Shown here: in pieces, positions 1 to 14,104 of the stretch
How positions within the stretch are numbered: position 1 is the stretch's first letter
Layout: the number at the start of each line of letters is the position of its first letter
From: a virus
Lineage: Duplodnaviria > Heunggongvirae > Uroviricota > Caudoviricetes
DNA: 20,229 nt
Virus record (IMG/VR): IMGVR_UViG_2609459769_000010
Reading direction: 5' to 3' (one strand)
Program-made: the position numbers and the translations under genes
The notes under the pieces: model-generated
Seen by the model: the letters and a program-made list of their open reading frames with translations, nothing else
Told to the model about the DNA's origin: nothing
Database searches by the model: none

Positions 1-930
1 ATGAAGATATCTCTTGTAGTTCCTGTCTTCAATGAAGAAGAAGCGATACCAATTTTTTATAAAACGGTACGTGAATTCGAAGAATTGAAGTCATATGAAG
101 TGGAAATTGTTTTCATAAATGACGGCAGCAAAGACGCTACGGAGTCAATTATTAATGCTCTGGCTGTTTCAGATCCTCTAGTTGTTCCGCTGTCATTTAC
201 ACGCAACTTTGGTAAAGAACCAGCATTGTTTGCAGGGTTAGACCATGCAACTGGCGATGCCGTGATTCCAATTGATGTTGACCTGCAAGACCCGATTGAG
301 GTTATTCCTCATCTTATTGAAAAGTGGCAGGCAGGTGCTGATATGGTACTTGCTAAGCGCTCTGACCGTTCTACAGATGGAAGACTGAAGCGCAAGACTG
401 CTGAGTGGTTCTATAAACTTCACAACAAAATAAGCAACCCAAAAATTGAGGAGAACGTCGGAGATTTCCGACTAATGTCTCGAGGAGTTGTGGAAAACAT
501 TAAATTATTACCAGAACGCAACCTGTTCATGAAAGGAGTATTAAGCTGGGTTGGTGGTCGTACAGATGTTGTTGAATATGCTCGCGCTGAGCGCGTTGCA
601 GGAACAACTAAATTTAATGGGTGGAAATTATGGAACCTGGCTCTGGAGGGTATCACTAGCTTCTCTACATTTCCTCTGCGTATGTGGACTTACATCGGTC
701 TTTTTGTTGCCGGTTTGGCATTCATTTATGGTGCATGGATGATTTTAGATAAGCTGATATTTGGAAATGATGTTCCTGGGTATCCATCAATTATTGTGTC
801 TATACTATTTTTAGGTGGTGTGCAGCTTATAGGGATCGGTGTGCTTGGAGAATACATAGGAAGAATATATATTGAGTCAAAAAACAGACCAAGGTATCTT
901 TTAAAGGAAAATGACTGTGAAAAAAAGTAA
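1..930 (+). CDS. gtrB: Bactoprenol glucosyltransferase GtrB (GT2 family, O-antigen glucosylation/seroconversion)
   Basis: 309-aa ORF starting at window position 1. Translation recalled as near-identical to E. coli K-12 YfdH/GtrB and Shigella phage GtrB ([17 protein letters not shown]..., DGSKD, C-terminal TM helices). gtrA would lie just upstream, outside the window. Confidence 0.93.
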
Positions 931-2686
931 TTTAATTATAATATCAGCATTAGCTATAGTATATTGCTTGCCAATTATTCTTGGCACATCATATTATTAT
1001 GATGATCTTTTCCGAGCCTATTCAGGCTATAGCTCATGGAGTTCAGATGGAAGACCGTTTGCTAATACCTTTTATCAAATACTGACCTTTGGTCAAATGA
1101 TGCCTGATACGTTTCCACTTGCACTTATAGTATCAATTTTTATTTTTGCATATATCGGGAGCAAGCTTGGTAGTTTCTATGGTAAGATTAATTCATACAC
1201 TTACTGTTTTGCCTATACAACGATTATAATGTCACCATTATTTATATCTAATTTATTATTTAGATATGACTCTGCATTTATGATGCTTGCTATATCGGCC
1301 TGCATTGTTCCATACGTAGTTACTTTAGATAAAAAAATAAATATAGCTTTCGGCACTTTGGCTGTTATTTTTTCATTTGGACTTTATCAAGCAGCAGTTA
1401 GTATTTTTATTGCTTTTGCTGGTATAGAGCTATTTATAAATAGTTGTTTTCATGATGCAAAAAAAACCATTAAAAACTGCCTCATTAGAATAATGCAACT
1501 AGCTGTGGCTTATGTTATTTACTCAAAAATCATACTTGGATTTTTTGTAATTAACGACTATTTCAAAGAATTTAACAAACCTATATCACTAAGTGCAGAT
1601 GGTATATCGCGGTTAATGGCAAACATATCATCTTCTATGCATAACATAATATTGATGTTGAATTCTGGATTCTTAATAGCTGTAACTCCAATAATATGTT
1701 ACTCCCTTTTTTGTATTGTAAAGCACTCTATAACCAACAAGAAACCATATTCTATAATTGGTTTTATTCTGGCATTGGTTGCTTTATCTATTGCAGTTCC
1801 GGGTATAGCGATATTTGGTGAGAAGCCAATTTTCTATCCAAGAATTTATATTGGTGTTGGTGCATGTCTTTTCTTCATATGCTTCATACCAGTTATGTTG
1901 AATGGGAATAAGAAGATAACTATTGCTGTGCAATTTATTTTCATTTTTTATCTATTTGGCATGATTAACGCAACAAGCAATGCGGTTAGATCTGACGTTG
2001 AGTTTCAAAAAGCAACGTCTCAGAGAATTATAAACATAATTGATAGCAGTTACCTTTCAATTAATCATAAAGTTGTTATTCTTGGTCAACTTCGCCAGTC
2101 TCCATTATCATACATCAACTCATTATCATATCCATTGATTAACATATTGTCGCCGCAGCACTTTATCAATGGTTATGACGGTGGTCGATTCGTACTTATG
2201 CATGAGGGGCTTGACAATATTGAATATCCGGATATTCAAGAGCAAAGCAAATACAGAGATGCAATTAAAAATTCAAAACCAATATTCTCAAACAATATTT
2301 TTTCAATATATAACATTAATTCAACTACGGTCATATCTTTTGAGAATACATTATATGACGAAGCGAATAATAAGATGATACCATATACATTTAAGAGTAA
2401 CATGGTAAGTAATGCTCATTACGGTGATAAGTATTTCTATGCTTGCATTTCAAATACAGTATCCCCTACTCTTAAAAGAAACGAGTGGTACTATCTACTT
2501 ATTCACAATAAAGATGGTTCAGTCATTAACAGAAATTTTTTCGCTCCTTATTCAATGCATAATGACGAAAGTACATGCGTTAACACTCAATGGAAGGAAC
2601 CTGTTTCGTTAGAAGATATAAACTCAATTGAGTTTGGAATTTACAACATAGAAACAATGCAAAGGCGGTTAGATCTAGGCTCATAA
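911..2686 (+). CDS. GtrC-type serotype-specific O-antigen glycosyltransferase, polytopic membrane protein with long hydrophilic C-terminal domain
   Basis: 591-aa ORF overlapping the gtrB stop by 20 nt, with AAGGAAA RBS. N-terminal ~370 aa are very hydrophobic (multiple TM helices); C-terminal ~220 aa are hydrophilic. Strongly AT-rich compared with the rest of the window. Sits where the third gtr gene is found in P22/SfX-type conversion modules. Confidence 0.6.
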
Positions 2687-2690
2687 TTTT

Positions 2691-2714
2691 AAGGCCTCTG
2701 TTGAGGCCTTTTTA
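2691..2714 (+). terminator. Rho-independent terminator of the gtr operon
   Basis: AAGGCCTC-TGTT-GAGGCCTT hairpin followed by TTTT, 5 nt after the gtrC stop. Confidence 0.6.
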
Positions 2715-2893
2715 CGTAATATTTAAATTCCTATACATTCCGTTACCATACCACGCTTGATCTGGATGCCATGGTTTCAGCGCATATGAATTCGTCTATA
2801 TTTATTAAAAATTTCTCTGGATATGCGGTAGATAGTGCTATTTATTCACATAATAAAATAAGAATAGATTTACTCGTATATAACTATGTTTGA

Positions 2894-2931
2894 TAGAATT
2901 AAGAAAACGGCTCCCTGTAGTGGAAGCCGTT
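2894..2931 (-). terminator. Possible terminator downstream of tailspike
   Basis: AACGGCT / AGCCGTT 7-bp stem (12-nt loop) followed on the - strand by TTTCTTAATTCT. About 80 nt past the tailspike stop. Confidence 0.3.
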
Positions 2932-3007
2932 ATAGTGCTGCAGTTTAAAGACAGATCAACCAATCCTTAACTGATCGGCATTGCCGGATGACCGGGCTTT
3001 TACATTT

Positions 3008-5212
3008 TTAGAATGCTTTCAATGTAGAGGCTTCTGAACCAGCACAGGTAAGAACTATCTTGTAGTACCCGGTTTTAGCCCCCCCTGAAACTCCTGACCA
3101 GTCAAAATTTAACTGCAATATAGCTCCGTTTTCATTTGGCGCACCGTAATTAACACTAGGTGCCCCTGGAGTAGAGATATCGAACATTGGCATATTTGCC
3201 GCCACTGAGTTTGCATTATACGAGTTGGTATTTCTGGCATCATTTCCTTGAGATGCAGTGATTACAGGCCATTCACCACCCAGAGCACTCTTTTGTACCA
3301 CCTCTATCGTTGCAGGTCCATTTCTCAACAACACTCCCTCGTAATACACATTTCCATGCGTACCACCGGTTCCATGTATTTGTATAGTGGCGAATCCGCA
3401 ATCAGCATAGTTGACTGATGGATCGAACGTCTGATGATACATATCAGATGGCAATGGCATAACAACTGCTGATAGTGTTGCTGGGGATGGCATTGATGTT
3501 CCTGTCCCAGTATTCATTGCAGGAACCCTGAGCTTTATTGATTCGGCTTTTCCACGAATGTTGCTGTATCCATCACCATGTGTATTGATCATATGAACAG
3601 GCCTAACAATTACTCCTTGAATAAACGCATTGCCATCAGCTATTTTTGCGAATGTAATTGTTTTCCATCCTCGACCAATCAATTGTCCGGCGTGCTTTAC
3701 CATTCCTGTGCTATTGCCGCCTCTATTACGAAGTGGCCATCCATATTGTTTTCCTTGATAACTTAGATTGCTACTAACTGGATAATTCAAATCGTAGTAT
3801 GGTGGCTTCGTTCCTGTGTAATTCTCAACTGGATGCTGAACCAGCATGCTTAAAACAACATCATCCCAACTGCCAATAACATCTATCTCAGCAGCTTCTG
3901 CATCAAGATAAAAGCTGTACGACATTACTGCGCTACCAGTTATCGGGAACTGTCCAGTTATTCGTTGTTGAGTATATGCAGCTCGATCAAAGACAATATT
4001 GAAATTGTTAGTAGGCAAGGCCATGCCAAAATGATCAGACATCATAGTGGGCCACATCATGATTTCTGATGATATTGGTTTGTACGATGGAGAAAGACCG
4101 CCAGCCATTAACATTGATGCGATTGCCTCACCCATTCGCTGATACCCCAATGAGTTAAAGTGGGTGCCGTCGCTTTGCACTACACCCTGTGGCATGTTGA
4201 ACTGAAGCTCGCCAAGGTTAATATGTGCGCAGTTATATAGTGTGGCTAAGTTTTTGACCTGAAATGCATATGACTGTTGGTAGTTAGCCAAGTTAAAATT
4301 GTACATACTAAAACTACCTGACGCAGTTTGACAAACAAGAACACCCATCCCCCAATCAATAAAGCGACGTATCAATTTTTCCATATACTCAAGGTACTCA
4401 TTGATGTCGCCCTCATTTGCATCGTTAATCGCATACATTAAAATTGCCAAGTCGCAATTAGGGTTTGTTTGCCAGTCAGGATTCTCATAGGCATTTTTTG
4501 CCGTGAAGCCTGAAATTGCCCTTACAGTTATTGATGTTGGCGCCCCTGATTGTTCCTCAAGATATGATCCAAGACGAACAGGATACGTAACTGTGGCATG
4601 AGTTGCGTTATCAGGGCTTCCTTCAACAATATCTGTTGATGAAATATCATATCCAGCAGTTATTGAATCTCCCTGACAAAGAATTTTTAATGGACTTCTT
4701 GATTTAATCAGGTAGTTTACATTAAGTAACATCCTTATATTTCTTGAACCATAGTTAGCAGAATCATTAGCAATATTACCTTTCGCATTATCATCAAGGG
4801 CTTCCTGAATCGTCTCTCCACTAACAGTGCCAATCATTCCTGCCCCAGTGCTTGATGTTAGTCTTTGTTCTAACTGATCGGGATCATACTTCAGCACATT
4901 TGGAAAATAGAACTGCTGCACACCGTACGCATCATAAACAGCCATAGAATGGCCTTGCACAGTTACGAATTTGGCAATCTGTCCGTTATATACCGGATAT
5001 CCGGCAGCATTTATAACGATTGGTTGTGACACTTGAACATGAGTGCCGTCTTCTCGTTCCAGATATACTGGAATCTGGTTTTCAGGATTTACCGGATCAG
5101 TGTCAATTTTACCGATATAAATTTTTCCATTGGCTACGGCTTTAAAAGAACGAGCCATAGTGAAGAGTTGCGAAGGCATCGATACGATCACATTGGCTGT
5201 AATGTCTGTCAT
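3008..5212 (-). CDS. Tailspike protein: P22 gp9-like N-terminal head-binding domain fused to SGNH/GDSL esterase domain and C-terminal beta-rich domain
   Basis: 734-aa ORF with GGAG RBS. First ~115 aa ([41 protein letters not shown]...VLKYDPDQ) match the P22 tailspike head-binding domain as recalled. Downstream carries SGNH hydrolase blocks: GDSIT (aa 181-185), INDAN (GxND-like), DGTHF (DxxH). Confidence 0.85.
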
Positions 5213-5270
5213 TTAATTTGCTCCAGATACAATGAATCGCCGCAGCGTGGCCACGGTGAATTTTGGGCAT

Positions 5271-5293
5271 AAAAAAACCCAGCCGAAGCTGGG
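5271..5293 (-). terminator. Rho-independent terminator between ejection-protein genes and tailspike
   Basis: On the - strand: CCCAGC-TTCG-GCTGGG followed by TTTTTTT. Confidence 0.6.
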
Positions 5294-5343
5294 TAGTTGC
5301 GTTGGTTATCTGTCAGTAGTTATGTGCTTATTTAATTATTTAT

Positions 5344-7188
5344 CTATTGTTCTGCTGTAATTTGGCTTGAAAGTATAGGGCGTATCGCATTTGCAGCATT
5401 ATTTAACGCTCTTTCATAAGCTGGCGTTCCTGCTTTGGTGTTTGCCAAACGAAGAAGCATATTCCTTGCGGCTTTGGACTCATACAAACGCATCATTGCA
5501 CCAAAACCAGCCTCAAGCCCCATTGATACACCAAGAGTCGCAGTTGCGCCAATCGTCCTTATCCTGTTGGCTTGCGATTGCCCCGTCTGAGTTACTACAT
5601 TTGCGGTGTCTGACCTTGCTGTTTGCTGTAGAACTTCATGAAGAGCATCAAGCTCTTTCATGTGCTTTCCAGAAAAAATAGTGTTGTAAATTTCACCGCC
5701 TGACTGAGATTTCAGCTTATTAACTTCAGTGATGAACTTGGCTGGAGAGTCACCGGCCTTTTCCGCTATTTTGCTGACGTAAGCTGCACGCATAGCATCT
5801 TTCCCTTTATCATCCAGTGCGCTCCAGATTCGTTTCACGTCAGATGGTTTTCTGCTTAATACAACGGTATTTATAAGTTCAGGACTGGCTTCACTGCTTG
5901 CCTTGTTGAGCTTGTTAGCAATGTTTTTATTAAGCACCTTATTATAAACGTTTGCATAATCGGAATTTGCTTTAAGGTATTTTGCTGCGTCTGATGCACC
6001 GAGGTTTTTAGCAACTGCGTTACGAAGGTCTTTTGACATTGCATTCTCTACCATATTGGTAGCTGCTTTTGCCTGGTTGGGGAAGACCATAGCATCTCCC
6101 TGAACATTAGATCTAAATGCTGTTCTGTGCTGACGCAAGAGATCAAACGTAACATCCAAATCAGTTGCAGGGTTTGCTAATTCTTCACGTAGGTTACGCA
6201 AGGATGTAAGCAGGCTTTGATTGGCAGACGTCCCAAGCCGTTCCTGTCTTGCGATCGCTGTATTCAGAGCATTCATGGTATTTGTGGTATCAACTGCGGC
6301 ATTACCCATTTTATTGGTGACGTCATTGATAACAGCGCCAGCGGCATCCTTCCGCCCCCTTAACGTGGTGGTCAGAGATTTCACCACATCATCAGGGTTA
6401 TACTCACCAAAACGGTCAAAATAATTGCTTACCAGTTTACTACGCGTTGCATATTGCTCCGCTCGCTTTGAGCCTGTCCCGAGCAAAGCACCCTCGGCAT
6501 CCTGAGTAAGGCCACGAGTGAAAGCATTTTTCGGCGGGATAACATCAGATGTCATTGGTGTCACGCCCATCGATTCTGATGTGGCAATTTTCTTCGCCAC
6601 TTCTGGCGCAATATCACCTTTTATAGCCGTTATTCCACGCCCTATTCCCTTTGCTGCTGCGGAAAGAACACCCTGAGCGGCAAGGTTAACTCCGGCATTT
6701 TTAGCTGCATTTTGTGCGAAATCGCCTTTCTGATTTGCGGCCTCTGCCAGTGAGCCAATAGCCATGCTTCCTGCCGTTCCAACTCCTGGAACTAAATACC
6801 CACCAATTGTTTCACCGGCTTGTGCGTATGGGTCTGTCGGTTTGTCTACTGGACGATAAACATCATCCAAAACTTTTGGCCCACCAAGCCCCTGACTGAT
6901 TGCATTAATCAGACTTGCGCCACCCTGCAATACGTCAAATGGTATGTTTACCAGACCACGACCAGCCTGTTCTGCAATTTGCCCTGCACTTTGACCACCA
7001 GTGAGCCAATCGCCAGCTTGTTGCATCAATGATGGTTCGTCCCGTGTTGGTGCATTATTGGACTGATTAACTGTTTGTTGCTGAACAGCCTGACCAGCAA
7101 AATACTCATCAATGGCGGTGCCAATATCTTCGGTGCTCGTACCATCAGGAAAGGTAAATGTCTTACCGTTTGCAGTTACTTTCATCAT
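5344..7188 (-). CDS. Ejection (injection) protein, P22 gp16-like
   Basis: 614 aa (P22 gp16 is ~609 aa by recollection). Last gene of the gp7-gp20-gp16 series. Start ATG overlaps the upstream stop (ATGA). Gly/Ala-rich, low-complexity composition typical of E proteins. Confidence 0.7.
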
Positions 7189-8591
7189 TCCACCGTAAAT
7201 TGAATGCCTGATTTTGAGGTATATGATCCAACCTGATTCCGTGGTTCTCCTGAAGGTGTCGAATCTTGTGCTGGCGCTGCGTCAGTATTCATTGACATAT
7301 ACCGCTTAACGGCACTCCCCAATGATTCACCTTTTTTAACATCCAACCCCAATATCTGACCGCCATTACGCGATTGTCCAGGGTTGCCATTCGCGCTCAT
7401 CCACTCGGCTTTAAACTCATTAAACTGCGCGTTTCGTCGCTCAAGGTTTGCCATTGCATCAAGCCATCTTGCGACCGTCTCAGGGTTATCCATGTCAGTT
7501 GGCGCACCCTGTCGAACGATCTCAACGTCTTTATCCGTTGCTGGGCCGGGAGGTAGGAATTTAAGAACCTGACTGTTAACAAGGGCATTTTGGCGAATGC
7601 GCAAATCACGCAATGTTGTATCGCTTCCGGTAAGTTTTGCGAACATGTTCTGTGCGTTACCGAACAAACCTGTCGTTGGTTTTTCTGCTCTGAACTGTTG
7701 AGCAAGCGCACTCATAGAATTGGCTGAGTTTGATGATGCTGTAGCATTGTTTACAGCCGTCTCGATGCCTTTTTCCATGTTTACTGACAGCTTAGGTGCT
7801 TCGCTAATCAACTGCTGAGCCTTTTCCTGCGCTTGCTGCATCTTAAACCCGAACTCTTGCTGATCCAGAGCCAAGCGTTGTGCTGCGATATTGTGCCCAG
7901 TCATTGCTGACTGATAGGAAAGGTTTTGCCCTCTCGCCTGAAGTGCTTCTCCAGCCTGATTGCTGCGGATTGTCTCTGCCAGTCTGCCTCGGTCAATTTC
8001 ACGACCAGCCATCTTGTCCTGAACATTGAAGTAATCAATCGGACCAAGAGCAGCCATCCCAAGGTGATCAACAAACTCACCAAATCCTGAAGGATTCTGC
8101 TGATACATCTGAGCAACGCTGTTAGGGTCAACACCGACGCGAGTCAGTTCCTTGGCGTTGTTTTGCAGCCATGATTGCATTGCTTCTGGAGACGATGACG
8201 CAAGGCGTGCGCCAGCCGCTAAGGTGCCGATAGAATTGCGCTGGTCTTCATCAATGAATCCCATGCCTTTACGAACGGATTCAATCTGGTCTGGATATTG
8301 AGTAGCCAACTGACGCAAAGCACCGCGATCACCAGACGCATAAGCATTAGCGTATGCCTGCTGAAATTCTTTCTGCCGCTGAGCCTGCTTTTCCTGCTGA
8401 AACACCCCCGCAATACCTGAAAGGCCTTGCAAAGCAGTCAGCCCAACATTGTTAGCGCCTGAACGCTCAATATCATTGTTCTGTCTGATAAGCTGAAGCG
8501 TATTGCCGATGTCATTTACGCTCGGAGCGTTTGAGTTGACACCACCGATACCAGCCAACAATCCGCCATTTGTTCCTTGCCAAGTAGCCAT
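7185..8591 (-). CDS. Ejection protein, P22 gp20-like
   Basis: 468 aa (P22 gp20 ~471 aa). Gene order and size match the P22 E-protein cluster. Confidence 0.7.
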
Positions 8592-8600
8592 GATTACCCC

Positions 8601-9296
8601 TTAAAACAACGATCCAAGCAGGCCAAGTCCGCCGCCAATTGCCGCACCTAATCCAGTGCCAAGTCCGGGAACAATAGAGCCAAGAGCAGCGCCAGTCATA
8701 GCCCCTGAAGCTCCACCGCTAATTGCTGTCTGAAGACCTGATGGTTTGTTGGCATTAGCAGCGGCAAGAGCTGCGCTTTGCTGTGCAATGCTGCTCATGT
8801 TGTTGGCGTACGTCTGCCCGGCGTTTGCCTGACCTTGCAGAGCACCAAGCCCAACGTTTGCCAGATTGTTGTAATTGCTCATCTGGTTTGATAACCACGA
8901 CTGACCGAGAGTCGGAGCAATCGTAGCCAGTTGATTGCTTGTGGCTGTCGAACCAAGTCCGCCAGTCGCCTCCGCAGCAGCAAGACTCTGGTAACGAGCC
9001 TGACCTGCAAGGTCTTTATACTGCTGAGAATTGTAATACTGATTAAGTGCCTGCCCCTGACCTTCTAAACTGGAAAGATTCTGAAGCTGGTTAACATACT
9101 GCTCCGCAAGCGGCGTGAACGGAGCAAGGTTTTTCATGATCGTCTGCCACTGCTGATTTTGCAGGTCTGCGGCATACTTCTGGGCTTCTGCTGCATACTT
9201 TGCGCTTTTATCAGAGCTACCACCTTTCCCGCCTTTTTCAGGGCAATAAGGTTCCTCGCCGCGCAGTTTTCTGCCCAGCTTAAATGCATATAACAT
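8601..9296 (-). CDS. Ejection protein, P22 gp7-like
   Basis: 231 aa (P22 gp7 ~229 aa), with glycine-rich C-terminus. Position between the gp14-like and gp20-like genes. Confidence 0.65.
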   Translation of the reverse strand: MLYAFKLGRKLRGEEPYCPEKGGKGGSSDKSAKYAAEAQKYAADLQNQQWQTIMKNLAPFTPLAEQYVNQLQNLSSLEGQGQALNQYYNSQQYKDLAGQARYQSLAAAEATGGLGSTATSNQLATIAPTLGQSWLSNQMSNYNNLANVGLGALQGQANAGQTYANNMSSIAQQSAALAAANANKPSGLQTAISGGASGAMTGAALGSIVPGLGTGLGAAIGGGLGLLGSLF

Positions 9297-9298
9297 GG

Positions 9299-9757
9299 CT
9301 ATCTCCCGTGATTCAGGAAGTCGATTAGTTCTTCACGTGTGGCGCTGTAAAACGTCACGTCATCCACGCCTTTGAAGTATTTCTTGATGGTTCCTACACG
9401 CTTAAGGCCAATCATCGCGCAATACATCTGACCGTGGCGGAATTTGCGTGCAGCGAACGATGTGACGCACTGAACGGTGGTGTTAGTCAGAATGTATCGC
9501 CAGAACGCCAGCCCGATTTCCTTGCTGAATCCGCGAATCTCTGGCAGGTACATGGCGTGGCAATCGAATGTCAGCGGCTGAATCTCCTGATAGTAAACAA
9601 TGCCGCCGAACTGCCCGTGCACGTTCACCTCAAAGTAACGGCAATCAGGTTTGTAGTCGTATCCATCACCGTTGTTGCTCCCGGCGATAATGTCAGGGTG
9701 ATTTCCTACTGCTTCGATCAGGTCGATGTTTCGCGTTGGTTTGAACTGAATCATCAC
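9299..9757 (-). CDS. P22 gp14-like virion protein
   Basis: 152-aa ORF between the tail needle and gp7-like genes, the position of gene 14 in P22. Start overlaps the tail-needle stop. Confidence 0.5.
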
Positions 9758-10602
9758 TGCTCCGCGATTATCTTGATGGTTGTGGCAGTAAACGCCGCAC
9801 CATTTGACTGAATGGTTAACGTGCTGCCATTTGTGGCAAGAAAGCCGTCTTTATCCACGCTGAAGAACGTAGCTAACAAGATGTTATCGGTTGTTGTCGC
9901 CGAGTTGCGACTGCTTACCAGTGTGTCAGGAACAGAACCGGAAAATGTTAGTTGCATTGACCTGTTGGCGGTTCCACTGGGCCACGTCCCGACAATCGAC
10001 AACTTGAAGAACAAGGTTTTGTTCTCGTTGAACACAACCATCTTGTTGTTAACGGTGTCGAAGAATGGTGCCAACGTGCCGGATGACGGCGTGAGCGTTT
10101 TCAGTAGGCTAACAAGGTTGGTCGGCGCTGTCGGAATGGTTACTGATACGCCAGAGTAAACAACCTCTGACTTCTTGCGCGTGGTTGCATACTCCAGAGC
10201 ATCAATGCGCGATTCATGATCTGAAACCTGCGACTCCAGCGACTGAACTCTTGTGTCAAGCGACGCAATATCGCTTTCATTCTGAGCTATTCGTGTTTCA
10301 TGTTCCTGAAGAGTTGATTCTGCCTGGCTGATTCGCTCCTCATGATTAACAAGCGTTGCTTCCGCAGCAGAAATTCGCTGCTCATGGTCAGCGAGAATCA
10401 CATCCTGCTCATCGTTCCTGACCTGTGCATCATAAGCGCCTTGTCCGGCCTCGTTGGCCTTGTTCGCCACATTACCAACATCAGCACCCTGTGCAATAAC
10501 GTAAAGCAGATACGACTGCGAGAAGATATTGCGTGGAAGGATTGATGTATCGAGCCGCGTCGCCTGAACAATAACAGGTGTATTGAGATTCGAATCCGCC
10601 AT
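9754..10602 (-). CDS. Tail needle protein (P22 gp26-like) with C-terminal knob domain
   Basis: 282 aa. N-terminus [43 protein letters not shown]...[18 protein letters not shown] matches the P22 gp26 N-terminus as recalled. Followed by a trimeric coiled-coil segment with a 14-aa periodic HExRI repeat, then a ~140-aa C-terminal domain (Sf6-type knob architecture). Confidence 0.85.
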
Positions 10603-12024
10603 TACTCAATCCTTATCTGAGCGCCAGACAGAGTGACAGGTGACTTCGTGATAACGCGCAATTTGAAGCCAACATTTTTCCTGATGCGCCCTACCCGCTT
10701 CCACAAAACGCGTTTGTCGTAAACGAACGGTTCATTCTGCTCAATCATCTGCTCACGCCCGTAATTGATGCCGTCAGTGGTTGCAGAGAGAAAAAGGCGG
10801 TCAGCATACTGCGCAACTCCAGTTGAAGATTCAACCTCAAGGTCGAACACCCGGGCGTTATCCGCTTTGAACAACGGAGTAAACAGCAGGTGTTCCTGTT
10901 GAAGCCCATACTGGCTGCTGATATCGAACTGCAATTTCCCGGTCACCGATTCCAGCTTATCGCCGCACGTTATTTGATTGCCTTCGTAAATGAAGTCGAT
11001 AGCGCGGTACACATCGTCATACAGGCCTGTTTTCAACACACACCATTGCGGACCATTGGCGCTTGAAGATGCGTCGTATACGAGGACATGGCGCGGAAGA
11101 TGGATAATCAGCAACTCATGCGCATCAAACCGCAACGATTCCATCACACCATCAGCCAGTTCATCAGCAGTGTAGGAGCGGAGGATTTTCTCAATGCTCG
11201 CGCTGGCGATTGGTGACACCTGACCGGAGCCGATGATGTATACAGATGGCGCACCCGTTGCCGGATTGCTGATGAACGCATACGAATCAGCAAACGGCGT
11301 TTTGCAGTAAGTCCCGGCGATGCCTTTTTGCACCATCAGTGATGGCTGTGCGACATACAAAGCAGCACCAACGGTGGTTGCGCCAGTCAGGGAGAAATAT
11401 TCAATAGTCGATGAACCAAAGCAGACGATGAAGTCTCGCCATGTCCCGATACCGATGATGCCGTCCGGCTGAGACTCGGCACGATATTGTGCGCTGTAAC
11501 GGTCAGGATGCGATTCGTCTTCAAGGTCAGTGATAAACCATGAATCAGTGCCGTCTTTTGACCACGCATAACGCCCACGTAAGCGCGTAATGTCACGAAC
11601 CGAACCTAACTCATACTGAGTGAATCCGCTGTCTGTAGGCCAGTTTGAGACTGTTTTAACCGTGCCATCATAGCGATACTCGACCAGTTGACCATTAACA
11701 CCTACCGCCTGTGATGTCCGACCATGCGCCATTGATACACGACCACTTCCGGCAACATCACCGACTTCACTTTCTCCTTTGTACAGCTTGCCGCCACACA
11801 CGCGATAAACAGCACTCTGCGCCATGTTGTACTCAACTCCGCGCGATACGCCGTTCACATCAGAACGTTTGGCAATGCCCGGGAATGAGCGAAGATAGTC
11901 TGTAAACACCAACAAGGCGCTCTGCGAACGCCCTGTTATTTGCTGCGGCTACCACTAATCCCTCAGGTGAATCAGGGTGTCGAATCTCTTCTTTTTCCTG
12001 GTATTTCTTACGACGTTTTGTCAT
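10602..12024 (-). pseudogene. P22 gp10-like tail hub/head-completion gene, reading frame interrupted (two frames)
   Basis: The 437-aa gp10-like frame (10602..11915) has no ATG; an in-frame TAG lies at 11949-11951. A strong AGGAG RBS plus ATG at 12024 opens a second frame (MTKRRKKYQEKEEIRHPDSPEGL...) that stops at 11860, overlapping the first. Span from 12024 to the gp10-like stop is ~473 codons, close to the P22 gp10 length (~472 aa, recalled). Frameshifted gene, sequencing indel or deletion fusion are all possible. Confidence 0.5.
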
Positions 12025-12058
12025 AATTACTCCTGTGGATTGATCCAGTCTTTCTACA

Positions 12059-12337
12059 TCAGGCCTCAAAACTGTTGCAGCAGTCTTGAGGCTTTTCTTT
12101 TGTCAGCACCATGGCTACTTTCTTTGCCAGCTCCGCTAATTCCTCGTCTTCAACACCCCACTCCAGCACAGCCAGAAGCATGGCCATCTTTGGGATAAAG
12201 CTGTCTTTCCATCGCGAAATTTGCGATTCATTAATCCCTAACGCGTCGGCAACCTTTCGCTGACCACGTACAGCAATTCGATTCAGGATGTTGCTTGTAA
12301 TTGCATTCGCTTTCTTGCGAGTACTTGTAAGTTGCAT
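12059..12337 (-). CDS. cII: Transcriptional activator CII
   Basis: 92-aa product (MQLTSTRKK...SQISRWK...MLLAVLEWGV) aligns with lambda CII (QISRWK, MLLAVLEWGV). The 5' leader ...TTATCTAAGGAAATACTTACATATG is essentially the lambda cII leader. Confidence 0.85.
   Translation of the reverse strand: MQLTSTRKKANAITSNILNRIAVRGQRKVADALGINESQISRWKDSFIPKMAMLLAVLEWGVEDEELAELAKKVAMVLTKEKPQDCCNSFEA
12291..12330 (+). promoter_or_regulatory. Candidate CII-dependent promoter (pRE-like) TTGC-N6-TTGC motifs
   Basis: On the + strand inside the 5' end of cII: TTGCTTGTAATTGC (perfect TTGC-N6-TTGC) and TTGCGAGTACTTGT. Lambda pRE sits in the same place and orientation. Confidence 0.3.
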
Positions 12338-12416
12338 ATGTAAGTATTTCCTTAGATAACAATTGATTGAATGTATGCAAATAAATGCATACACCATAGG
12401 TGTGGTTTAACTTGAT

Positions 12417-12446
12417 GCCCTTTTTCAGGGCTGGGATGTGTAAGAG
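12417..12446 (-). promoter_or_regulatory. nutR (boxA + boxB) N-utilisation site
   Basis: - strand reads GCTCTTACACATCCCA-GCCCTGAAAAAGGGC: boxA-like GCTCTTACA and a boxB hairpin identical to lambda nutR boxB. Lies between cro and cII. Confidence 0.8.
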
Positions 12447-12456
12447 CTGGAATGTC

Positions 12457-12672
12457 TTAAGCGGCTTTGTGTTCCGGCGGGAACACGTCATCAAGACTGA
12501 CTTTTGCGCCTAACTTGTTTAGGCACTCAACAAGAGCACGGCATGTTTTAAGGTCTGGGAAGCGACGACCAGATTCCCAATGTCCGATAGCTCCCTGTGT
12601 GCATCCAACTGCCTTAGCAAGTGTTGTTTGAGAGATATTCAGTGACTCTCGATATTTTCGTAGGTTGCTCAT
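12457..12672 (-). CDS. cro: Cro-like repressor (HTH, XRE family)
   Basis: 71-aa product MSNLRKYRESLNISQTTLAKAVGCTQGAIGHWESGRRFP..., with GGAGGG RBS. Divergent from cI, first gene of the pR transcript. Its recognition-helix motif TQG-IGHW..G.R.P is shared with the cI N-terminal domain. Confidence 0.75.
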   Translation of the reverse strand: MSNLRKYRESLNISQTTLAKAVGCTQGAIGHWESGRRFPDLKTCRALVECLNKLGAKVSLDDVFPPEHKAA

Positions 12673-12698
12673 ATGCCCTCCATAGTAACCATGAAGCA

Positions 12699-12727
12699 AT
12701 AATACGATATGTACTTTTAGAATGCAA
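12699..12727 (-). promoter_or_regulatory. pR promoter with embedded operator (oR1-like)
   Basis: - strand reads TTGCAT - 17 nt (TCTAAAAGTACATATCG) - TATTAT. The spacer and -10 contain AAAGTACATATCGTATTAT, almost the same as the element in pL. Confidence 0.55.
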
Positions 12728-12783
12728 ACAAAAAATACATCTTGTGCATGGATGATTTTAGTACAGAGCGTAATAATAAGGGT

Positions 12784-13443
12784 ATGAAAATGAAATGGTA
12801 TGAACTGGCTAGATCCAGAATGAAAGAGCTCGGCATAACTCAAGAGAAGTTAGCTGAAGAGCTTGGTATGACGCAGGGTGGAATTGGTCACTGGTTGCGC
12901 GGATCTCGTCATCCATCTCTTGACGAGATTGGTGTGGTGTTTAAATACCTTGGTATTGATAACGTCTCATTCAACCACGACGGTACATTTTCACCTGTTG
13001 GCGAATACTCATCTGCCCCCGTTAAAAAACAATATGAGTACCCTGTTTTTTCTCATGTTCAGGCCGGGATGTTCTCGCCTGAGCTTAGAACCTTTACCAA
13101 AGGTGATGCGGAGAGATGGGTCAGCACAACCAAAAAAGCCAGTGATTGTGCGTTCTGGCTTGAAGTTGAAGGTAATTCCATGACCGCGCCAACAGGATCC
13201 AAGCCAAGCTTTCCTGACGGGATGTTAATTCTCGTTGACCCTGAGCAGGCTGTTGAGCCAGGTGATTTCTGCATAGCCAGACTTGGTGGTGACGAGTTTA
13301 CCTTCAAGAAACTGATCAGGGATAGCGGTCAGGTGTTCCTACAGCCACTAAACCCGCAATATCCAATGATTCCATGCAATGATAGCTGTTTCGTAGTAGG
13401 GAAAGTTATCGCCAGCCAGTGGCCTGAAGAGACATTTAGTTAA
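12784..13443 (+). CDS. cI: CI repressor (S24 peptidase/LexA-like C-terminal domain; distinct N-terminal HTH domain)
   Basis: C-terminal ~130 aa ([115 protein letters not shown]...) nearly identical to lambda CI as recalled. N-terminal ~90 aa HTH domain is unlike lambda CI. Start chosen at ATG 12784 (MKMKWYEL...); the upstream TTG/ATG at 12742/12748 are alternatives. Confidence 0.85.
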
Positions 13444-13475
13444 CAGCCTCACAACTCTAAAACACACAACAATAA

Positions 13476-13505
13476 CCCGACCTTAGCGTCGGGTTTTCTT
13501 TTTCC
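13476..13505 (+). terminator. Rho-independent terminator after cI
   Basis: CCCGAC-CTTAGC-GTCGGG hairpin followed by TTTTCTTTTT. Confidence 0.55.
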
Positions 13506-13568
13506 AAAATATAAACCTATTAAATACAAAGCGTTATAAAAAACTAATTATATTTAGAACATTTTGTA

Positions 13569-13597
13569 TTGACTCGATAAAGTACAAATCGTACTAT
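13569..13597 (+). promoter_or_regulatory. pL promoter with embedded operator (oL1-like)
   Basis: TTGACT - 17 nt (CGATAAAGTACAAATCG) - TACTAT. Contains the inverted repeat AGTAC-AAATC-GTACT and matches the pR element (consensus AAGTACAWATCGTAYTAT). Confidence 0.55.
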
Positions 13598-13636
13598 TTA
13601 GCCATCAGCAGGACGTACTAACCACCATGAAGGTGA

Positions 13637-13667
13637 TGCTCTTAAAAATTTAGCCCTGAAGAAGGGC
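13637..13667 (+). promoter_or_regulatory. nutL (boxA + boxB)
   Basis: TGCTCTTAAAAATTTA-GCCCTGAAGAAGGGC: boxA-like plus the exact lambda nutL boxB hairpin, upstream of N. Confidence 0.85.
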
Positions 13668-13777
13668 AGCATTCAAAGCAGAAGGCTTTGAGTAGCGCGA
13701 AATGCAGCTGCAAGACAGCAACCGTGGAGATAAGCATCACGGCGCGTTACTCAAAGCTAACTGACAGGAGAATCCAG

Positions 13778-14104
13778 ATGGATGCACAAACACGCCGCCG
13801 CGAACGTCGCGCAGAGAAACAGGCTCAATGGAAAGCAGCAAATCCCCTGTTGGTTGGGGTAAGCGCAAAACCAGTTAACCGCCCTATTCTCTCGCTGAAT
13901 CGCAAACCGAAATCACGAGTAGAAAGCGCACTGAATCCGATAGACCTTACGGTGCTGGCTGAATACCACGAACAGATTGAAAGCAACCTGCAACGTATTG
14001 AGCGCAAGAATCAGCGCACATGGTACAGCAAGCCACGCAGTGAAATGGGGGTGACTTGTGTTGGTCGCCAGAAAATGAAATTAGGCAGCAAACCACTTAT
14101 TTGA
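13778..14104 (+). CDS. N: Antitermination protein N
   Basis: 108-aa product MDAQTRRRERRAEKQAQWKAANPLLVGVSAKPVNRPILSLNRKPKSRVESALNPIDLTVLAEYH..., near-identical to lambda N over most of its length. AGGAG RBS. Confidence 0.9.
   Translation: MDAQTRRRERRAEKQAQWKAANPLLVGVSAKPVNRPILSLNRKPKSRVESALNPIDLTVLAEYHEQIESNLQRIERKNQRTWYSKPRSEMGVTCVGRQKMKLGSKPLI

Follow-up and report, generated by a model that had tools for sequence, protein, structure and literature searches.

An out-of-frame joint between a gene-42 homologue and gp10, the probable scar of an ~18 kb deletion in a P22-like Escherichia coli prophage

Organization of the reading frames downstream of cII

The sequence analysed is the 20,229-nt viral record IMGVR_UViG_2609459769_000010, hereafter called the window, and the features discussed in this section all lie on its minus strand. 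Downstream of an intact cII-like transcriptional activator gene of 92 codons (12059..12337; phrog_191, E=1.4e-36), which is collinear with Sf6 gene 41 and is the last complete early-right gene ahead of the region of interest, an AGGAG Shine-Dalgarno sequence at 12030..12034 is followed by the spacer TAATT and by an ATG at 12024-12022. The same Shine-Dalgarno sequence is found in Sf6 and in E. coli Ec-U18. The first-pass annotation had described this start correctly except for the spacer, which is 5 nt and not 6 nt long. The frame opened by the ATG (frame A), whose beginning reads MTKRRKKYQEKEE... / MTKRRKKYQ..., encodes a product of 54 aa, MTKRRKKYQEKEEIRHPDSPEGLVVAAANNRAFAERLVGVYRLSSLIPGHCQTF, and ends as previously noted at 11860, after 54 sense codons and a TGA at 11862-11860. 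The second frame, which carries the similarity to the P22 tail protein gp10, has the in-frame TAG already reported at 11951-11949 as well as another one at 11957-11955, and it contains no ATG before position 11825, which corresponds to gp10 codon 66. Its TTG and GTG codons are located at 11915, 11912, 11909 and 11858; the GTG at 11858 lies 1 nt past the stop of frame A. The ORF that starts at the first ATG (10602..11825) has 407 codons.

Parentage of the two sides of the joint

In order to find the origin of the two frames, we compared a 751-nt query that crosses the boundary between them with 50,697 phage records and with 5,426 complete E. coli genomes. All matches to cII and to the gene that follows it (239 phage and 1,725 E. 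coli records) end at query position 555, i.e. window position 11896, and the records in question are annotated with cII and a small hypothetical protein at this place. By megablast this arm corresponds to Sf6 27426-27980 and to E. coli prophages (identity up to 99%). A second query showed that gp10-type genes, including Sf6 gene 8 and HK620 gene 10, match from window position 11897 downward with 93-95% identity. No record in the phage set or among the complete E. coli genomes spans the joint, and none covers 80% or more of the 751-nt query.

The window was then compared in register with Sf6 gene 42, Sf6 gene 8 and E. coli Ec-U18. Over exactly 43 codons (129 nt) it tracks gene 42 (Sf6 27852-28013, annotated as an HK97 gp53 homologue of 53 aa), and residues 1-43 of frame A are identical to Sf6 gp42 at 43 of 43 positions. 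Window position 11897 equals Sf6 position 6959, which is nt 124 of gene 8 and the first base of codon 42 (TAT); from nt 124 on, the remnant is 95% identical to Sf6 gene 8. Three parts can thus be delimited on the minus strand: a segment purely of the gene-42 homologue (11898..12024; Sf6 gene 42/HK97 gp53 family, function unassigned), a 2-bp TA common to both parents (11896..11897), over which the BLAST matches of the two arms overlap, and a 5'-truncated homologue of gp10, the tail hub or "packaged DNA stabilization protein" (10602..11895). Together with the TA, the truncated gene comprises gp10 nt 124-1419, that is, codons 42-472 plus the stop codon. Since the gp10 sequence is one base out of register after the 43 gene-42 codons, translation reads SSLIPGHCQTF and then stops, so that the ORF at 11860..12024 is a chimera of 43 gene-42-homologue codons, 11 out-of-frame gp10 codons and a TGA. 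Both TAG codons of the gp10 frame lie upstream of the joint, inside the gene-42-derived DNA.

Profile searches gave the same partition. Among the PHROG families, the 54-aa product hits phrog_1331 and covers positions 1-44 of 53 (E=6.7e-31). A complete member of this family would be an ORF of ~53 aa located directly downstream of cII and overlapping the start of the replication-initiator gene; frame A has kept the position after cII and residues 1-43, but its final 10 residues are gone, as is the replication gene behind it, which makes it a truncated member. The 431-aa remnant matches Pfam PF11134 at profile positions 39-469 of 469 (E=2e-272) and is about 98% identical to Sf6 gp8 over residues 36-472. 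It therefore belongs to the gp10 family by significant similarity, as a remnant that has neither the full profile nor a start codon and ribosome-binding site of its own. The first-pass annotation had asked whether the N-terminus of frame A might be that of gp10. No frame of the window matched gp10 residues 1-45 in a tblastn search, the nucleotide similarity to gp10 halts abruptly at 11897, and window positions 11898-12020 are only 26% identical to gp10 nt 1-123. The alignment of frame A that had been proposed as a check instead revealed homology to a protein other than gp10 (Sf6 gp42/phrog_1331), a result that favours a deletion fusion over a frameshift.

Retained genes, missing block and chromosomal site

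The genes on both sides of the joint are well preserved. The immunity region (12457..14104) contains, together with cII, full-length family matches for cro (12672-12457, minus strand), a cI-type LexA-family repressor (12748-13443, plus strand) and the N antiterminator (13778-14104, plus strand), the three being assigned by PHROG matches; the gene calls in contigs identical to the window agree. On the other side of the joint, a late block on the minus strand (5344..10602), collinear with Sf6 6959-10911, encodes the tail needle (9754-10602; full-length by Pfam), a gp14-like protein (9299-9757) and the ejection proteins gp7 (8601-9296), gp20 (7185-8591) and gp16 (5344-7188), the last four with full-length family matches, as has the tailspike. 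The prophage also keeps int, the early-left recombination functions, gtr genes for O-antigen glucosylation and a tailspike of the esterase type.

A comparison of the whole window with the genome of Shigella phage Sf6 (AF547987) by blastn showed collinearity except for Sf6 27981..39043 plus 1..6958, a total of 18,021 bp. The arms are 94-95% identical to those of Sf6 and have the same gene order, with cII (gene 41) and gene 42 on one side and gene 8, the needle, the gp14-like gene and the ejection-protein genes on the other; coliphage HK620 is a further relative of this type. Apart from the 18,021 bp between the break points, Sf6 differs from the window in its tailspike, in its O-antigen modification genes (oac in Sf6, gtr in the window) and in its integration site. 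The absent interval comprises the replication initiator with the origin and a DnaB-type helicase, followed by the nin region, the Q antiterminator, the late promoter, tRNAs, holin, endolysin and Rz/Rz1, and finally both terminase subunits, portal, scaffold, coat, the gp4 homologue and the first 41 codons of gene 8.

The element is integrated in a bacterial chromosome. Contigs that carry it, some of them 160 kb long, include the integrase gene; there the element is bordered at one end by sbcB-int, and the opposite flank contains gtrA, an S24 peptidase gene, dacD, sbmC and yeeA. The gtrA-dacD flank was established by a look-up of the tailspike, a look-up of GtrB having led to unrelated prophages integrated elsewhere. 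On the sbcB-int side the flank has 100% identity with that of E. coli JKHS016, which at the same site harbours a related P22-like prophage with gene 42 and replication, nin, Q, lysis and terminase genes between cII and gp10. Both arms of the element are collinear with intact relatives, and the block of essential genes annotated between them in Sf6 and JKHS016 is gone. It is important to mention that the content and size of the missing block are deduced from these two relatives and not from a direct ancestor; a search for an intact and nearly identical ancestor was negative, and the best relatives of gp10 have ~95-98% nucleotide identity, the closest one 98% over 300 nt.

Taken together, these results make it very probable that the window is most of a defective Sf6/HK620-like (P22-like, Lederbergvirus) E. 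coli prophage and contains the scar of a deletion in which ~18 kb were lost in one event. The identities of both parents bear out one of the possibilities raised in the first-pass annotation, namely that a deletion fused a truncated gp10 to the 5' part of the gene located after cII. A single illegitimate deletion, guided by microhomology only, would have joined codon 43 of the gene-42 homologue to gp10 nt 124 (codon 42). It would have taken out the replication genes and origin, nin, Q and the late promoter, the lysis cassette, the terminases, portal, scaffold, coat and gp4, and with them the first 41 codons of gp10. Because the reading frame is not kept across the joint, ribosomes that begin at the native gene-42 ATG would read 11 nonsense codons and stop at 11860, and this would give the locus its appearance of one gene in two frames. 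That the joint arose by one event and by illegitimate recombination is inferred, the single event from the otherwise undisturbed arms and the near identity of the carriers; two or more successive deletions could leave the same end state.

Two other ways of producing or delimiting the deletion were considered and rejected. Neither an IS element nor a long repeat (direct repeats of at least ~10 bp being looked for) was found at the joint, where the parents share only the 2-bp TA, which speaks against a deletion mediated by such elements. A degradation by RecBCD limited by Chi was likewise discarded as the determinant of the end points, because no Chi site of either orientation is present in the window, in Sf6 or in the JKHS016 and O104:H4 prophages.

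It is common for lambdoid prophages to be grounded by internal deletions. The element is an undescribed example of such ordinary, deletion-derived prophage decay, and no description of this remnant or of the gp10 cassette presented below was found in the literature.

Break points near the gp4/gp10 border and a homing-endonuclease cassette

Other P22-like remnants were gathered from among the best E. coli hits of the window and from about 330 IMG/VR loci. With the window included, nine independent deletions were collected, six of which have a break point in a stretch of about 340 nt around the gp4/gp10 border. In the IMG/VR locus L088, an early-left gene is joined to gp10 nt 8; in E. coli N273, inverted replication genes are joined to a point 205 nt before the gp4 stop; and in TW14425 (as well as in locus L278), the start of a replication gene is joined to a point ~102 nt before the stop of an IME10-type gp4. 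The same gp4 break point, within 1 nt, is used in F719, where the left partner is ral, and in locus L169, where it is the portal gene at codon ~497. The three remaining deletions are located elsewhere: between portal and coat in JKHS016, at an IS1 upstream of the terminase in O104:H4, and inside the head block in locus L084. In representative species genomes, gp4-gp10 is intact in all nine flanked loci, and by a screen for early genes the region is intact in 78 of 80 IMG/VR loci, only the window and L088 having early genes close upstream of gp10.

The remnants in JKHS016, F719, N273, TW14425 and O104:H4 resemble the window in that they are integrated, have kept int, early-left, immunity and/or tail-end genes, and have lost essential blocks through illegitimate joints or IS elements; those of JKHS016 and F719 even occupy the same sbcB/dacD site. 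The joints themselves differ (portal|coat, ral|gp4, inverted replication genes|gp4, replication-gene start|gp4 and IS1, respectively). Among these loci the gene-42|gp10 joint is unique to the window, which is also the only one to cut into gp10 there, L088 in IMG/VR clipping it at nt 8.

The gp4 joint at -102, which is shared by three different left partners, borders by inspection on a small putative hairpin, CGGTT-ATCCA-AACCG, and agrees with a DnaA box in 8 of 9 positions.

A further feature of the same region is a 703-nt cassette found within gp10 of some P22-like prophages, which encodes a 194-aa endonuclease with NUMOD4 and HNH_3 domains. The cassette is arranged as native gp10 nt 1-90, the endonuclease gene, a recoded copy of gp10 nt 1-120, and native gp10 from nt 121; the recoded copy is 63% identical to the native sequence and partly overlaps the end of the endonuclease gene. 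It occurs in ~5% of P22-like prophages (5 of 80 and 6 of 119 loci) and in 28 IMG/VR contigs, two of which are cut off by the end of the locus; wherever the flanks can be read, it is placed at exactly gp10 nt 90|121. Since its copies are 99-100% identical where complete and stand at this one position behind at least four different gp4 alleles, the cassette is, judging from its sequence, a mobile one, with the same-position pattern that is expected of a homing element. The closest copy of the enzyme, with 98.5% identity, is ORF SPUPF_00057 of Salmonella phage UPF_BP1; we found no published work on the biochemistry of this enzyme.

The gp10 sequence of the window begins at nt 124, which is 3-5 nt past the right boundary of the cassette (nt 120|121) and 33-35 nt past the insertion site (90|91), so that the break point of the window coincides with the place where the cassette inserts. 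This raises the possibility that a site-specific nick or break, introduced by the HNH homing endonuclease at the 5' end of gp10 in a cassette-free prophage, initiated the deletion, a proposal that would refine the deletion explanation and not replace it. The enzyme would have been supplied by a superinfecting or co-resident cassette-bearing P22-like phage, a transient superinfector leaving no trace, and mis-repair, for example by fork collapse and microhomology-mediated rejoining, would have fixed the right deletion end at the target site. The apparent mobility of the cassette and its fixed position at nt 90|121, the recoded nt 1-120 that it brings along, the distance of 3-5 nt and the nearby breaks in L088, N273, TW14425, F719 and L169 all point in this direction.

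Nevertheless, we consider such seeding unlikely. The target of the enzyme at gp10 is only presumed and its activity putative, and the presumed target is still intact in the other remnants that break nearby, whose end points the enzyme cannot account for. The window contains no endonuclease gene, and none of the 28 cassette-bearing IMG/VR contigs comes from its genome. The loss would have been very asymmetric, with 18 kb removed on one side and ~30 nt on the other, and an explanation by asymmetric degradation finds no Chi sites in these phage genomes to rest on. To our knowledge, moreover, classical end joining is absent from E. coli. The coincidence was also spotted post hoc, and, as far as the free-standing phage HNH homing endonucleases of the NUMOD4 + HNH_3 (I-HmuI-like) type are concerned, the window joint abuts the cassette site and the link is a positional one. 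The wider proposal, in which the enzyme, targeting gp10 codons ~30-40, set the right deletion end and the last ~200 nt of gp4 with the first ~125 nt of gp10 form a hot spot at which P22-like prophages are trimmed to tail-end remnants, is put forward as a doubtful one. Should it hold, nucleases that competing phages direct against one another would directly cause prophages of enterobacteria to decay. More broadly, one may ask if the places where P22-like prophages break are shaped by homing endonucleases or by some other site-specific process at the gp4/gp10 border, and the proximity of the cassette and the clustering of the break points are the sole parts of this analysis that deserve follow-up.

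Fate of the products and possible function

Irrespective of what placed its right end, a deletion of this extent would leave a prophage unable to replicate, to activate late transcription, to lyse the cell or to make heads, as we infer from its gene content and from established lambdoid and P22 biology. The gp10 remnant is most likely a pseudogene, because the start codon, the ribosome-binding site and the N-terminal extension are lost. Structures are available for the P22 gp10/Sf6 gp8 tail hub (PF11134; PDB 7SG7, 8TVR, 8EAP), one of them with the complete 472-residue chain of Sf6 gp8; the remnant in the window is about 98% identical to this protein over residues 42-472 and is without the first 41 residues. 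The N-terminal extension of Sf6 gp8 contributes to the apical insertion domain (PMC9728967). The 54-aa ORF or an N-terminally truncated gp10 may still be expressed, the GTG at 11858 and the ATG at 11825 being the candidate restart codons for the latter, and presumably neither product is functional.

A selected fusion would require that the element had been domesticated, with the needle, ejection and tailspike genes placed as a module under the early promoter PR, and that the 54-aa peptide or the truncated gp10 had acquired a role in the host. The full-length family matches of every late gene past the joint and the conservation of the same gp10-to-tailspike block in several independent remnants would fit such a scenario. 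The carriers, however, are only 0-2 SNPs apart over 18.4 kb, so intact ORFs are to be expected from recency alone; gp10 has lost its start codon and the extension that in Sf6 gp8 forms part of the apical insertion domain; and portal and gp4 are absent. Both proteins are required for the assembly of P22-type tails. In addition, the ~200 nt around the joint contain no sigma-70-type promoter-like match. A scan of the region 9600-13000 gave three promoter-like matches, which do not exceed chance expectation, and the same holds for the terminator counts around the joint. A functional fusion of this kind is very improbable.

Authenticity of the joint

The exact 54-aa chimeric protein is encoded on nine contigs from several assemblies, including at least two NCBI assemblies (GCA_009767305.1 and GCA_000711565.1) and the Logan assemblies of SRR1186796. 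Over 18.4 kb, 0-2 SNPs separate the carrier contigs from the window (2 SNPs in GCA_009767305.1), and those of GCA_000711565.1 and GCA_009767305.1 are 160 kb long. A 25-mer across the joint was absent from the GTDB representative genomes and from the JGI metagenomes, and in IMG/VR it was present in the window itself only. This rarity, together with the absence of the joint from every complete E. coli genome, is what might be expected if an assembler had wrongly joined two separate parts of an intact prophage. Such a chimera is nonetheless extremely unlikely: the 2 bp common to both sides are insufficient for a k-mer or overlap misjoin, the joint recurs in assemblies made by different groups with different pipelines (GCA_000711565.1, GCA_009767305.1 and Logan SRR1186796), and in the 160-kb contigs it is embedded between normal host flanks on both sides. 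Since independent assemblies agree and the 2-bp overlap is too small for a misjoin, the joint is real and vertically inherited in a clonal E. coli group, a conclusion drawn at the level of assemblies.

The remaining explanation, in which gp10 is one continuous gene carrying a simple +/-1 frameshift or a homopolymer sequencing error, had been suggested by the summed length of ~473 codons, close to the 472 aa of gp10, and agrees with the overlap of ~36 nt between the two frames, but it can practically be dismissed: the frames are not consecutive parts of one family, frame A being Sf6 gp42 over 43 of 43 residues and a phrog_1331 member, the DNA upstream of 11897 is not that of gp10, gp10 residues 1-41 are coded in no frame of the window, the PF11134 match starts at profile position 39, and the identical sequence is found in several independent assemblies. 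The agreement in length is accidental, because 43 foreign codons stand in for the 41 lost gp10 codons. Programmed frameshifting was rejected for the same reasons, frame A being the Sf6 gp42 homologue and the gp10 N-terminus being encoded nowhere in the window.

For annotation this means that the two ORFs, 11860-12024 and 10602-11825/11915, should be kept separate and not "repaired" into a frameshifted gp10, the first being a chimeric leftover and the second, most likely, a 5'-truncated pseudogene. Gene callers report the latter from its first in-frame ATG, and the resulting 407-aa Phage_stabilise protein is called in both GCA_000711565.1 and SRR1186796.

Recurrent break points near the gp4/gp10 border

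A single nucleotide (+/-1), located approximately 102 nt before the stop codon of the IME10-type gp4, was found joined to three different left partners, namely the beginning of a replication gene, an oppositely oriented ral fragment, and codon ~497 of the portal gene, the last of these in frame. This break point is present in the prophages of E. coli TW14425 (L020, ~16177) and E. coli F719 (L017, ~15955), and in the IMG/VR contigs L169 (~7431) and L278. The backgrounds of the loci that share it are 4-5% diverged, and the same position is unbroken in 126 other IMG/VR loci. It looks like a site-specific break point.

Two more independent P22-like remnants are also broken near the gp4/gp10 border. 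In the contig L088 (IMGVR_UViG_2698536590_000008), an early-left gene homologous to Sf6 gene 33 is joined to nt 8 of gp10 at ~5496-5500, and in the prophage of E. coli N273 (L018), inverted replication genes are joined to nt 279 of gp4 at ~10146. The Chi sequence (GCTGGTGG) was absent from both strands of the window, Sf6, and the prophages of E. coli JKHS016 (L009) and O104:H4 C227-11 (L019).

An endonuclease cassette at the 5' end of gp10

The beginning of gp10 is interrupted by a 703-nt mobile cassette in about 5% of P22-like prophages, as exemplified by the copy at 8998-9700 in L050 (IMGVR_UViG_2737471865_000001); further copies were found in L091 and in 26 other IMG/VR contigs. Besides the gene for a NUMOD4+HNH_3 endonuclease (194 aa), the cassette contains a recoded version of gp10 codons 1-40, and the first 90 nt of the native gene are stranded upstream. 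Its position is invariant (gp10 nt 90|121), and at least four gp4 alleles were found ahead of it. A counterpart is located at 20433-21014 in Salmonella phage UPF_BP1. No published description of this cassette was found in our literature search.

Related prophages at sbcB/dacD and in O104:H4

In E. coli JKHS016 (NZ_CP147059.1), the insertion site of the window, sbcB/dacD, is occupied by a related prophage of the P22-like type. This prophage has an internal deletion of its own, which differs from that of the window and links part of the portal gene to part of the coat gene (L009, 21255-23857); this site therefore repeatedly hosts decaying P22-like prophages. It is also occupied by the F719 prophage. 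In the P22-like prophage of E. coli O104:H4 C227-11 (2011 outbreak lineage), an IS1 (L019, 19339-20036) is flanked by an early-left fragment and by the DUF2560/small-terminase genes; all the head and tail genes are kept, and the immunity, replication and lysis regions are missing.

Limits, tailspike and carriers of the window

At the prophage end, the window contains gtrB (1-930, plus strand) and a gene for a GtrC-type glucosyltransferase of 591 aa (911-2686, plus strand). Since its first base coincides exactly with the gtrB ATG and its last with the end of a stop codon, the limits were set by the provirus caller, which trimmed the window at gene boundaries; gtrA and int are situated immediately beyond them.

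The tailspike (734 aa; 3008-5212, minus strand) contains a head-binding domain of the P22 type and an esterase domain of the GDSL/SGNH class (Pfam PF13472, PF00657), a domain content that suggests a deacetylating, not glycosidic, receptor-destroying enzyme. An identical protein is encoded on 12 contigs; those reaching the joint represent the deleted prophage, and no intact version was found among the 12.

The early-left DUF551 gene was called with different lengths in the two NCBI assemblies that carry the deletion, 80 aa in L006 (2286-2528) vs 183 aa in L007 (2286-2837), which is consistent either with a stop codon created by one of the two SNPs or with a difference in gene calling. Finally, two 1.6-kb contigs of a 'Collinsella sp.' MAG (JAIHTM010000369/370; L023 and L024) carry a gp10 that is 98-99% identical to that of the window, almost certainly enterobacterial phage DNA introduced by binning contamination.
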